This document shows positions 11,093-58,942 of a DNA stretch of 64,000 nucleotides, one piece after another. Source of the DNA: Escherichia coli (lineage in GTDB: Bacteria; Pseudomonadota; Gammaproteobacteria; Enterobacterales; Enterobacteriaceae). The stretch lies in NCBI RefSeq assembly GCF_050920415.1, contig NZ_CP169309.1. One strand, written 5' to 3'. The notes under the pieces were generated by a model. The model ran no database searches, had not been told where the DNA came from, and was given only the letters and a program-made list of their open reading frames with translations. The translations under genes and the position numbers were made by a program. The stretch's first letter is position 1. Each line of letters starts with the position of its first letter.

Positions 11093-11212
11093 ATGCCTGG
11101 CAGTTCCCTACTCTCGCATGGGGAGACCCCACACTACCATCGGCGCTACGGCGTTTCACTTCTGAGTTCGGCATGGGGTCAGGTGGGACCACCGCGCTAA
11201 GGCCGCCAGGCA
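11093..11212 (-). rRNA. rrfA: 5S ribosomal RNA
   Basis: 120 nt; reverse complement starts TGCCTGGCGGCC and ends ...GGGAACTGCCAGGCAT. Confidence 0.9.
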
Positions 11213-11305
11213 AATTCTGTTTCATCAGACCGCTTCTGCGTTCTGATTTAATCTGTATCAGGCTGAAAATCTTCTCTCAATCCGCCAAAACATCTTCGGC
11301 GTTGT

Positions 11306-14208
<2,903 letters not shown>

Positions 14209-14391
14209 TCACAACCCGAAGATGTTTCTTTCGATTCATCATCGTGTTGCGAAAATTTGAGAGACTCACGAACAACTTTCGTTGTTCAGTGTTTCAATTT
14301 TCAGCTTGATCCAGATTTTTAAAGAGCAAAACTTCGCAGTGAACCTTTGCAGGTACACTCTGAAGTATTTTTTATTTAATCACTACAGAGA

Positions 14392-14467
14392 TGGTGGAGC
14401 TATGCGGGATCGAACCGCAGACCTCCTGCGTGCAAAGCAGGCGCTCTCCCAGCTGAGCTATAGCCCC
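14392..14467 (-). tRNA. alaT: tRNA-Ala (anticodon UGC)
   Basis: Reverse complement GGGGCTATAGCTCAGCTGGGAGAGCGCCTGCTTTGCACGCAGGAGGTCTGCGGTTCGATCCCGCATAGCTCCACCA, an exact canonical 76 nt sequence. Confidence 0.95.
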
Positions 14468-14509
14468 ATAACATGTAGTTAAAACCTCTTCAAATTTGCG
14501 GTGCAAATT

Positions 14510-14585
14510 TGGTAGGCCTGAGTGGACTTGAACCACCGACCTCACCCTTATCAGGGGTGCGCTTAACCACCTGAGCTACAAGCCT
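14510..14585 (-). tRNA. ileT: tRNA-Ile (anticodon GAU), apparently 1 nt shorter than canonical in the D-arm
   Basis: Reverse complement AGGCTTGTAGCTCAGGTGGTTAAGCGCACCCCTGATAAGGGTGAGGTCGGTGGTTCAAGTCCACTCAGGCCTACCA; canonical as I recall has GGTTAGAGCGC. Confidence 0.85.
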
Positions 14586-14653
14586 GTAGAGGTTTTACTG
14601 CTCATTTTCATCAGACAATCTGTGTGAGCACTGCAAAGCACAGTTCTTTAAGG

Positions 14654-16190
<1,537 letters not shown>

Positions 16191-24116: not shown

Positions 24117-25600
<1,484 letters not shown>

Positions 25601-25670
25601 GATCTAAATGCCACTGTATAAAGTTTTAGTTGCCGTTCTTCCCGCCTGTCAGGGGCGGGTTTTTTATATC

Positions 25671-29386: not shown

Positions 29387-30163
29387 TTATTCTTCAGTTT
29401 TTTCGCTTTCTGCTTCAGCGTCGTTTTCCTCTTCCCGGTTTCGACCCTTACCAACGTAAAAGCGTGAGAAGAAGACACCGATTTCAAACAGGCAGTACAT
29501 CGGGATCGCCAGCAGCGTTTGCGAGAAGACATCCGGCGGCGTCAGCAGCATCCCGACAACAAATGCGCCAACCAGCACATACGGACGTTTTTTGCGTAAG
29601 TCTTCTGGCGAGGTAATTCCCATCCAGCACAGCAGCACAATTGCCACCGGCACTTCAAAGGAGACACCAAACGCCATAAACAGCGCCATAACGAAGCTTA
29701 AATAGCTGGCGATGTCGGTGGATACCTGTACCCCTTCCGGCGCGGTATTGGCAAGGAAGCCAAATGCCAGCGGAAAGACCACAAAGTAGGCGAACGCCAT
29801 GCCGATATAAAACAACAGAGAGCTGGAAACCAGCAGCGGCACCACCAGGCGACGTTCATGCTTATACAGCGCTGGGGCGATAAACGCCCAGACCTGATAG
29901 AGAATCACCGGCGCTGACAGAATCAGCGACACCATAAAGGTCAGCTTGATCGGCGTAAAGAACGGCGAGGCCACGTCAGTGGCGATCATCGTTGAGCCTT
30001 GCGGCAACTGCTTGATCAATGGCGCGGATACCAGGTGATAGATGTCATTGGCGAAATAGACCAGACACAGGAATATCACGATCACCGCGATAATGCAGTT
30101 CAGCAGACGCTTACGCAGCTCAATCAGATGCGTGATAAGCGGTTGAGTATCTTCTACAGACAT
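29387..30163 (-). CDS. tatC: Twin-arginine translocase subunit TatC
   Basis: 258 aa six-TM protein beginning [21 protein letters not shown]. Confidence 0.95.
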
Positions 30164-30175
30164 GTTTACGGTTTA

Positions 30176-30682
30176 TCACTCGACGAAGGGGGAAGGTGCA
30201 GCGGTTTTCGGTTCAGCGTCCGCAGCAGGTTTTACCACCGGCTCTGGCGTGGTTTCTGGCTTCTGTTCCGGCGAACTGGCCTGCGTTTGTGCAGCGGCAG
30301 GCGTTACGCCTTCATGCGCAGCTTCATTATCTTTCACCACCGGGTTATGGATGGTGTGCGCTTCATCGCTCGCCTTTTCAGGATCGTTTGCAACGTAGGA
30401 ACGCTTCATCGACTCCGCGGCCTGGCGTAGTTCATCCATCGACGCTTTCAGTTCGGGCGTCAGGTTAGTGAGGCTCGCCTTTTCAACCTTTTTCAGGCTG
30501 TCCTGAAACTCCTGGAGTTTTAACTCCTGGGTCAGTTCGTTCTGCACCGTTGTCGCCAGTGAACGCAACGCGCGAATCCAGCCAGCTACCGTTTTTACCG
30601 CCACAGGCAGTCGTTGCGGCCCCAGAACGACGAGGCCGATGATGAACACCAATAGCAGTTCGCTAAAACCGATATCAAACAC
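30176..30682 (-). CDS. tatB: Twin-arginine translocase subunit TatB (C-terminal tail differs from K-12 as I recall it)
   Basis: Begins [26 protein letters not shown]; ends ...APSPFVE instead of the remembered ...APSPSSSDKP. Confidence 0.9.
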
Positions 30683-30685
30683 GGA

Positions 30686-30955
30686 TTACACCTGCTCTTT
30701 ATCGTGGCGCTTCGCGTCTTCTGTTTTAGCCTGTTCCTGATTCGTATCCGCCTGCTTATCGGCGATAGTTTTCGCAGTAAAATCAGCATCCTGACTGGTT
30801 TTATCCTGCTTTGGTTCATCATCGCTCATTGCTTTTTTAAAGCCTTTGATCGACGCACCAAGATCGGAACCGATGGAGCCGAGCTTTTTGGTGCCAAAAA
30901 GCAGTACAACGATGACGGCAATAATCAATAACTGCCAAATACTGATACCACCCAT
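30686..30955 (-). CDS. tatA: Twin-arginine translocase subunit TatA (start at [10 protein letters not shown])
   Basis: 89 aa single-TM protein with the TatA hinge motif. Confidence 0.9.
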
Positions 30956-41407: not shown

Positions 41408-41440
41408 GCTCCCCGACGTTGGGGAGCGTTTTTTTATTTC
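41408..41440 (+). terminator. Hairpin plus T-run overlapping the udp 3' end; second copy of a duplicated 19 bp palindrome
   Basis: gctccccgacgttggggag followed by cgtttttttatttc; the identical hairpin also occurs at 41231-41249 just after tctA. Confidence 0.5.
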
Positions 41441-43663: not shown

Positions 43664-44062
43664 ATGAGTGATATTATTTACCTGACCATAACCGGAGAAC
43701 AACACGGATGTATTTCCTCTCGTTGTGGAACGAGCACATCAATAGGTAATCGCTGGCAGATTGGTCATGAAGATGAAATCTTCGCGTTCTCGCTCTCTAA
43801 TAGTATTACGAATACAGGAAAAGGGTCACATTTGCATGGCCTTAGTTTCTGTAAGTTGATTGACAAAAGCTCCCCGTTACTTATTAACGCTATTAACAAT
43901 AACGAGCAGTTGTTCATGGAGTTTGACTTCTATCGGATCAATAGATTTGGTCGATGGGAGAAATATTACAACATTCAACTCCGCGGCGCGCTCTTATCAG
44001 CAATCAATCACCTGTTTACGGAGAACAATCTGGATACAGAAACCATCACTGTCAGTTATTAA
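43664..44062 (+). CDS. Hcp-like type VI secretion tube protein domain (132 aa, shorter than typical Hcp)
   Basis: IYLTITGEQHGCISSRCGTSTSIGNRWQIGHEDEIFAF, IDKSSPLLINAI, FYRINRFG and ETITVSY follow the Hcp1-family pattern; RBS before the ATG; AT-rich context. Confidence 0.6.
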   Translation: MSDIIYLTITGEQHGCISSRCGTSTSIGNRWQIGHEDEIFAFSLSNSITNTGKGSHLHGLSFCKLIDKSSPLLINAINNNEQLFMEFDFYRINRFGRWEKYYNIQLRGALLSAINHLFTENNLDTETITVSY

Positions 44063-44107
44063 TATATACTCTCCAGGCATCTGATTGCTAATACTGAATT
44101 TAGTTAT

Positions 44108-44812
44108 TTGGCATTTCCCGATAACTACAATCGTCTGTTTATACCACGGCCAAAAACTAAAGATGATAATGGCCTCAAAACACTCAATAGTAAAGCTGTT
44201 GGCAGACTGCTTGCTGCTGGCGGCATATACAATGGGAATATCGAAGGATTCAGGGAAACAGCAAACAAGTTGGGGGGAGATGCACCTGCTGGTTACGATC
44301 AAGTTATGGATAACAAAGGGTTACTCATCGCTGGTGCTTCAATAGTTGCTGGAGCAGTTCTGGGGAGAATGAGACTCCCTGATTTGGAATCACTTGAGCA
44401 TTTCGGAGCCAGAGGAGCAGTATCAGGAAGACCATTTAATCCCGACCTTGCCGGTGGTCCAATAGAAAATCTGACGACAGATGGCGTAACAATCAACAGG
44501 GAAGGTATCGCTATTGTTGAAAAACACATAGCCAGATTTGGTCATGACCCTGTAAATGAAGTGATGATCAATAGACTGAAAGACATTGAGAAAGGAAAAA
44601 TCCCCCCAGAACAAGTAGATCTTAACTTCTATACTCATGAATGTCGGGAATATCAGCGTTACTGTAATCTTGGTTGGGAAACAGGACAACCTGATGGTGA
44701 CGCAGGCTATGCACTCTGGAATCATACGCATACTGCTACTCTAGAAGATTATAAACTTAAGGGAGAACTTAATGACTTATACCACCAGGATGCACTTGAC
44801 TATGATAACTGA
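44108..44812 (+). CDS. Putative toxin/effector domain protein of unknown class
   Basis: 234 codon ORF in the same frame as the Hcp-like ORF, open from the TAA at 44060-44062; no ATG or clear RBS near its 5' end; glycine-zipper-like GLLIAGASIVAGAVLG segment. Confidence 0.4.
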   Translation: MAFPDNYNRLFIPRPKTKDDNGLKTLNSKAVGRLLAAGGIYNGNIEGFRETANKLGGDAPAGYDQVMDNKGLLIAGASIVAGAVLGRMRLPDLESLEHFGARGAVSGRPFNPDLAGGPIENLTTDGVTINREGIAIVEKHIARFGHDPVNEVMINRLKDIEKGKIPPEQVDLNFYTHECREYQRYCNLGWETGQPDGDAGYALWNHTHTATLEDYKLKGELNDLYHQDALDYDN

Positions 44813-57668: not shown

Positions 57669-58517
57669 ATGAACAACATATTAGGCTCATCAATTAATAT
57701 GCCCTGTACACTTTTCGAAACTATTACTTTATTCGATGATTTTTCTGCTGATGATATGCAGTATGGGGATATGGAAGAACAAGATTTTCTCTCACTCGGC
57801 TTAAGCGACATCTCTGCAAAAGTTGATCCTTACCGCCTCATTAAATACCATTTTCCTGGGCCGAATTCTACTTATGGTGCTTTTAGTGTTCCAACTTCTG
57901 GAACAAAAATATCACAAAGTGAATGTATTGATATTTTATTTGCAGAAATGAAAGATCTGGCAAAAATGTTTTCCTTTTTTGGACAATACAAAACACTCAT
58001 CCAGGATCTGATTGATCATTTTAGATATGGAAATGGCAACAGTTTCCATAGCCAGGAATTGAACTTATCTTTTCATGAACGAATAAACAAATATGATTAT
58101 AATAGCCCAATACGTGTAATCAAAGAATGTATCGAAAATGATATTTCTTCAACACCTACGATAGGATACCGGCCTCTTCTCCTACAAAAGATTAAGACCG
58201 AATTACTTTCATCAAGACTAAATAAATTCAATGATTTTAAAGATAATTTTAATGGCCTGGGAATCAGCATTCATGATATCTCAGCTCAAAAAATATCTCT
58301 TTTAAATTTTCAAAAATATCCTATGGGCTGGAGCGCTACCATTCATTTCATAGCACAAGACCACTTTGGTTTGGATGTGACTGATATAAAAAACAAGATT
58401 TACAACAAGTATAGATTTTTTCGCATATGGTTCTTTTTACAACGGCATAAAGACTTTGCTTTCAAACCTTTTTTTACCAATTTTAACACTATCGAAAGAA
58501 TCGAAAATTATCTATGA
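57669..58517 (+). CDS. Hypothetical protein (282 aa), AT-rich accessory gene
   Basis: ORF preceded by AGGAGA RBS; low-GC codon usage unlike neighbours; no family recognised. Confidence 0.45.
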   Translation: MNNILGSSINMPCTLFETITLFDDFSADDMQYGDMEEQDFLSLGLSDISAKVDPYRLIKYHFPGPNSTYGAFSVPTSGTKISQSECIDILFAEMKDLAKMFSFFGQYKTLIQDLIDHFRYGNGNSFHSQELNLSFHERINKYDYNSPIRVIKECIENDISSTPTIGYRPLLLQKIKTELLSSRLNKFNDFKDNFNGLGISIHDISAQKISLLNFQKYPMGWSATIHFIAQDHFGLDVTDIKNKIYNKYRFFRIWFFLQRHKDFAFKPFFTNFNTIERIENYL

Positions 58518-58942
58518 AAAGCAAACTCCAGAAAATTATATTATATTTATTTCTTATATGCTGCATCTATAATTTATGGACATTGCGTCCTGTACAGATT
58601 TTGTATACATACTCTGATGCTGGCAATTCAGTCTTTCTGGTCGTTGATCATCTGCCATGGACTGATAGCGATAAAATAAATTGGTATCTGAAGCATCAGG
58701 ATGAAATTAAAAGTCAAAATCCCCTACCAGAAGGTAGTTGGCATACCTGGTATGTTATTGATATCGGTAATGGCTTCACTGACTATAAAAAATATATCGA
58801 AGGGCTGTATGAAGATCTCTACTGTTTCCCGACGATTAAGAGCAATGATAATTGCATCGTAAAAAACTATTTAATGGTTATTAATGAATATCCTTACCGT
58901 AATACTCATTTTTTATTGCTGATAACAATGAGTATCAACTAA
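58514..58942 (+). CDS. Hypothetical small protein with N-terminal signal-anchor (142 aa)
   Basis: ATG overlaps the upstream stop (ATGA); hydrophobic N-terminus KIILYLFLICCIYNLW. Confidence 0.45.
   Translation: MKSKLQKIILYLFLICCIYNLWTLRPVQILYTYSDAGNSVFLVVDHLPWTDSDKINWYLKHQDEIKSQNPLPEGSWHTWYVIDIGNGFTDYKKYIEGLYEDLYCFPTIKSNDNCIVKNYLMVINEYPYRNTHFLLLITMSIN

Follow-up and report, generated by a model that had tools for sequence, protein, structure and literature searches.

The window analysed here, a 64,000-nt stretch of Escherichia coli DNA, carries the genes of the twin-arginine translocase (Tat) on its minus strand. tatB (30176..30682, minus strand) has a GTG start, 168 codons, and a TGA stop, and is located between tatA (30686..30955, minus strand), the first gene of the tatABC operon, and tatC (29387..30163, minus strand; 258 aa, ATG at 30163..30161). 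This tatABC(D) arrangement is evident both from the layout of open reading frames and from the PGAP annotation of a sister genome, strain MFDS1022581 (NZ_CP169399.1). The tatA, tatC, and tatD genes are intact, and the tatC product of the sister genome is WP_000109943.1, as in K-12. As far as can be judged from sequence, the gene between tatA and tatC is tatB by every available test: the TIGR01410 model (tatB equivalog) matches its product with 108.8 bits against a cutoff of 56.5, residues 2–80 corresponding to profile positions 1–79 of 80, and PF02416 (TatA_B_E) is recorded for the same 168-aa product. The transmembrane helix, hinge, and amphipathic helix of TatB (residues ~1–50) are intact and lie within the stretch that is identical to the K-12 protein.

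The gene departs from its K-12 counterpart at the 3′ end. The coding (minus) strand of window positions 30161–30200 reads ...GCA CCT TCC CCC TTC GTC GAG TGA TAA ACC GTA AAC ATG, and translation of the ORF gives a 168-aa protein ending in TAAPSPFVE, the altered C-terminus that the first-pass annotation of this DNA had reported. That annotation had given SPSSSDKP as the ending of K-12 TatB, in agreement with the translated tatB of MG1655, which ends in ...TAAPSPSSSDKP. Residues 1–165 are identical to K-12 TatB in a BLASTP comparison (165/165), after which the tail is F166-V167-E168 followed by a stop in the window versus SSSDKP followed by a stop in K-12, for total lengths of 168 and 171 aa, respectively. 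The frame shift begins after P165, the codon of which changes silently from CCT to CCC. When the tatB 3′ ends of the window, MFDS1022581, strain N96, and K-12 are aligned, one extra C is the sole difference in the stretch compared, which comprises the final 150 nt of tatB together with the beginning of tatC; the run is C5 in the window and MFDS1022581 and C4 in N96 and K-12. The C5 run occupies 30188..30192 on the minus strand (G5 on the plus strand), and the alignment to K-12 and N96 thus confirms the earlier attribution of the altered tail to a +1 in a C/G homopolymer at about this position. N96 differs from the window by a single-base gap only across 301 nt spanning the 3′ part of tatB. The new stop TGA lies at 30178..30176 (minus strand), with an in-frame TAA directly after it (30175..30173), and the ancestral stop TAA (30166..30168, minus strand) is out of frame in the window. 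The spacing between the tatB stop and the tatC ATG is 12 nt in the window versus 2 nt in K-12.

The frequency of the allele was assessed in a sample of 5,426 complete E. coli genomes. The 301-nt query matched tatB in 5,425 of them, with 100% identity over 301 nt in one match only, NZ_CP169399.1, from strain MFDS1022581, isolated in Korea from food of animal origin; the other matches listed aligned over 300 nt, that is, with a one-base gap. The run itself was probed with a 49-mer, AACCGAAAACCGCTGCACCTTCCCCCTTCGTCGAGTGATAAACCGTAAA, in which 22-nt flanks surround C5; megablast requires a 28-nt seed, which a C4 genome cannot supply from this 49-mer, so that only C5 genomes match. The C5 49-mer was found in one of the 5,426 genomes, again MFDS1022581, and the control C4 48-mer in 5,422, in 5,381 of these at ≥99% identity. 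No C5 run was found outside the lineage among the complete genomes, 5,381 of which have the C4 48-mer with identical flanks. On these 48-mer counts C4 is near-universal and presumably the ancestral state. A 20-kb query returned no further complete genome of the same lineage from this set, and the next best match to the window was N96, with 99.1% identity and a C4 run.

The perfect 301-nt match might suggest that the window is NZ_CP169399.1 itself, which is ruled out by the differences between the two: over the homologous 64 kb they are separated by 7 SNPs, 12 indels, and one IS2 insertion, and both carry C5. The IS2 element (~1.33 kb) is present in MFDS1022581 at window positions ~44217–44220, where it splits a tssD/HNH-endonuclease pseudogene region, and is absent from both the window and N96. 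The window therefore represents a different isolate from the sole complete C5 genome, and the two are sister isolates or assemblies. In the same region, a gene resembling tssD (type VI secretion tube protein; window ~43664–44800), which a small hypothetical gene adjoins, has an internal stop in the sister genome and in N96, and is apparently an old pseudogene that they share.

Other carriers were found by searching for sequences identical to the 168-aa protein. A third C5 run is present in GCA_015290155.1, on an 81.7-kb contig that is 99.985% identical to the window across 6.5 kb and 99.0% identical to N96. The exact protein is present in NCBI, UniRef, ENA, and Logan and occurs on 62 contigs, its accessions being EGB59579.1 (named E. 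coli M863), EGE62404.1, EGO6589012.1, and EGO7493063.1; the index of the assembly collection lists it in 95 blocks, 33 with contigs of 50–200 kb and 4 with contigs of >1 Mb. The DNA of the exact-protein carriers was viewed at one locus (GCA_015290155.1) out of this and 23 similar places, and the other carriers were judged by the adjacency of their accessions to the TatD and IclR alleles of the window. The window TatD allele, which differs from the K-12 and N96 alleles, occurs on 79 contigs, and the allele of the window IclR-family regulator on 100. By accession, TatD EGE62406.1 and IclR EGE62398.1 adjoin variant TatB EGE62404.1, and TatD EGO6589010.1 adjoins variant TatB EGO6589012.1, which places the variant TatB in the same genomes as the rarer TatD background of the window. 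Published work treats M863 as a strain of Escherichia clade I (PMC4182557); protein identity would place it in the C5 lineage, the link being the strain name on the protein record.

Taken together, these data make it highly probable that the extra C has been inherited within a rare E. coli lineage as a one-base insertion, which alters only the tail of TatB and leaves TatB and the TatABC translocase working normally. Replication slippage (slipped-strand mispairing) in the C4 run would have added one C, and the insertion would have arisen once, in an ancestor of the window strain, MFDS1022581, the isolate of GCA_015290155.1, and, by protein identity, M863. A single slippage origin is suggested because all inspected members of the lineage have C5 and the run is C4 in almost all E. 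coli, including N96, the closest outgroup. The first-pass annotation had offered strain variation and indel noise as readings of the altered TatB, and it is the former that agrees with the C5 run in distinct assemblies and with the deposited protein ending in PSPFVE, that of M863 included. It had also named TatB sequences of related strains ending in PSPFVE as the observation that would refute it, and this exact protein is deposited under several accessions.

The predicted consequences for the translocase are slight. The frame shift after codon 165 swaps the last six residues, SSSDKP, for FVE, and translation of tatB ends at the TGA 12 nt before the tatC start, not at the TAA 2 nt before it. 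The change is confined to the end of an unstructured and experimentally dispensable C-terminal coil, and both TatB and the TatABC translocase should function normally. From residue 96 onward TatB is predicted to be random coil; after loss of 50 or 60 residues from the C-terminus, its export and quality-control profiles are nearly identical to those of the wild type; and up to 120 TatB residues can be removed with retention of proper cell division, which is dependent on export of AmiA and AmiC (PMC9436932). Earlier truncation studies, as they are cited in that paper, put the portion of TatB that is enough for export of physiological substrates at ~50 N-terminal residues. The dispensability of the TatB C-terminal tail, already remarked upon in the first-pass annotation, is thus upheld by truncation data. 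Because the exchange of six terminal residues for three is far milder than the truncations tolerated in those experiments, TatB function is very probably intact and the allele neutral.

Alternatively, the frameshift could be real and yet have a functional effect, for example on the TatB:TatC ratio through the moved stop (12 versus 2 nt) or on TatB stability through the FVE tail. The position of the tatB stop relative to the tatC ATG does shift, and no strong Shine-Dalgarno motif was seen directly upstream of this ATG, such that some reliance of tatC on upstream translation is conceivable. However, a search of the available papers on tatB-tatC translational coupling found nothing relevant. Large C-terminal truncations of TatB in a tatABC expression plasmid also move the stop, and export and quality control in these constructs are like wild type (PMC9436932). 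Furthermore, many isolates retain the allele alongside intact tatA, tatC, and tatD, consistent with neutrality. An effect of this kind is therefore very improbable in our estimation, and a shade more so is its specific form, in which a stop 10 nt farther from the tatC start together with the FVE tail might change tatB-tatC coupling or TatB turnover and hence the TatB:TatC ratio. If it did, the allele would be a natural variant that tunes the Tat receptor complex and not a neutral marker.

Single-base and dinucleotide indels also occur elsewhere in the window. The rRNA operon (23S, tRNA-Ala, tRNA-Ile, 16S; window 11200–15900) has indels that are private to the window, being absent from both MFDS1022581 and N96: single-base indels in 23S at 11719 (+C), 13321 (-C), and 13523 (-1), and dinucleotide deletions in 16S at 15212 (-TA) and 15826 (-AT). 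Assembly errors left uncorrected in a multi-copy repeat are their probable source, and three rRNA indels are likewise private to MFDS1022581. The gene for tRNA-Ile(GAT) (window 14510–14585, minus strand) is 76 nt long with the D-arm GGTTAAGCGC in the window, versus 77 nt with GGTTAGAGCGC in MFDS1022581 and an annotated 77 nt in N96. The base missing at ~14564 is present in both of the other genomes, and its loss is likely an assembly error; ARAGORN still calls the gene. An IS621 (IS110-like) insertion lies between fadA and fre (window 24170–25445), and its transposase ORF is split into parts of 215 and 76 aa. A G is missing at 24650; this comparison is with MFDS1022581 alone, N96 being without the element, and the IS621 copy of MFDS1022581 is itself flagged as frameshifted by PGAP. 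In a gene of the DUF943 family (window 58514–58942, plus strand), the T-run at 58909–58914 is T6 versus T7 in MFDS1022581 and N96, and the protein is frameshifted and truncated, with 142 aa versus 165. Private to the window and situated in a single-copy coding sequence, this homopolymer indel is a better candidate than tatB for the indel noise that was suspected earlier. Private indels and private SNPs are about equal in number, and most of the indels are in multi-copy repeats, a pattern that would fit long-read errors beyond the reach of short-read polishing in repeats. Two further indels relative to N96 are common to the window and MFDS1022581 and have the look of ordinary differences between lineages: +G at 41428 and, shortly downstream of the fre coding sequence, an 8-bp deletion at 25612 that removes CACTGTAT, one unit of a direct repeat.

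Such errors raise the question of whether the extra C in tatB is likewise a homopolymer miscall of sequencing or assembly, either the window's own or systematic in related assemblies, with a 171-codon tatB as the true gene. The error-like private indels listed above (six in the rRNA operon including tRNA-Ile, one in IS621, and the T7-to-T6 change in a unique coding sequence) and the presence of C5 in just one of 5,426 complete genomes are compatible with a miscall. The mark of a homopolymer artefact would be privacy to one assembly; nevertheless, C5 is common to three distinct assemblies of the lineage (the window, MFDS1022581, and GCA_015290155.1), and the 62 contigs that carry the protein are of varied origin, with older draft genomes and assemblies made from SRA data among them. 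The demonstrable errors of the window are private to it and the tatB insertion is not, which favors inheritance. A systematic error driven by the sequence motif would be scattered over lineages, and the confinement of C5 to one lineage, with its absence from all 5,381 genomes having identical flanks, irrespective of how these were sequenced, again favors inheritance. Overall, the window differs from N96 by 585 SNPs and 20 indels, of which 14 are in the rRNA operon region and only ~5 are both outside it and common to MFDS1022581, and the SNP-to-indel proportion looks natural. A miscall is thus very unlikely to account for the extra C. The suspicion of indel noise in the first-pass annotation proves apt for the rRNA operon, tRNA-Ile, IS621, and the DUF943 T-run, and does not hold for tatB, where MFDS1022581 and GCA_015290155.1 have the same run.

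The annotation of MFDS1022581 points to a different reading, in that PGAP designates tatB (in NZ_CP169399.1) a "frameshifted" pseudogene, with a feature that extends to the ancestral TAA. Were tatB a true pseudogene in this lineage, Tat function would be lost or would be independent of TatB. A pseudogene in the functional sense would be recognized by loss of a required region or by further disabling mutations. Here, however, the change affects no more than the 6 terminal residues of 171, and the other 165 are intact, including the entire region covered by the TatB family model; no mutations have been added in tatB, given the lone gap relative to N96 over the 301 nt compared and the identity of the retained residues to K-12; and far shorter TatB proteins are functional in the truncation data (PMC9436932). 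Loss of TatB function has next to no probability in light of these findings, and we infer that the PGAP flag on tatB is a misleading annotation artefact. Phase variation at the tatB run was dismissed since C5 is too short and shows no length variation within the lineage, as was programmed ribosomal frameshifting, for which there is no slippery site or known precedent and in which the tail concerned is dispensable.

With heritable insertion as the preferred reading, the allele carries little biological weight, and the Tat translocase is almost certainly unaffected. The allele is already known, its protein having been deposited and its gene flagged by PGAP, and there is nothing new in kind. Its value is that of a clean lineage marker, C5 being confined to that one complete genome and to a rare lineage that would include M863 by protein identity. 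It also exemplifies a gene, very probably functional, that automatic annotation has labelled a "frameshifted pseudogene", and it warns those who look for errors that a noise-like homopolymer frameshift can be an inherited one, the true noise of this window lying elsewhere.

Compared with known systems, the window TatB is like K-12 TatB (WP_000459594.1, 171 aa), the TatBC receptor subunit of the twin-arginine translocase, in residues 1–165 and in its above-cutoff match to TIGR01410, and the locus has the same tatA-tatB-tatC-tatD order with ubiB and rfaH flanking; it is unlike K-12 in the extra C of the C4 run, in having FVE for SSSDKP and 168 aa, and in the gap to the tatC ATG of 12 nt, not 2. 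Engineered TatB truncations (1–161 down to 1–51; PMC9436932 and earlier studies) resemble the window allele in that the C-terminal random coil is altered and the transmembrane and amphipathic helices are untouched, whereas the allele is a natural frameshift that puts 3 residues in place of 6 and is milder than any truncation tested. Relative to the deposited 168-aa TatB allele (EGB59579.1 and others) there is no difference at the protein level, the two being identical from the first residue to the last, and the window is one more carrier of that allele.
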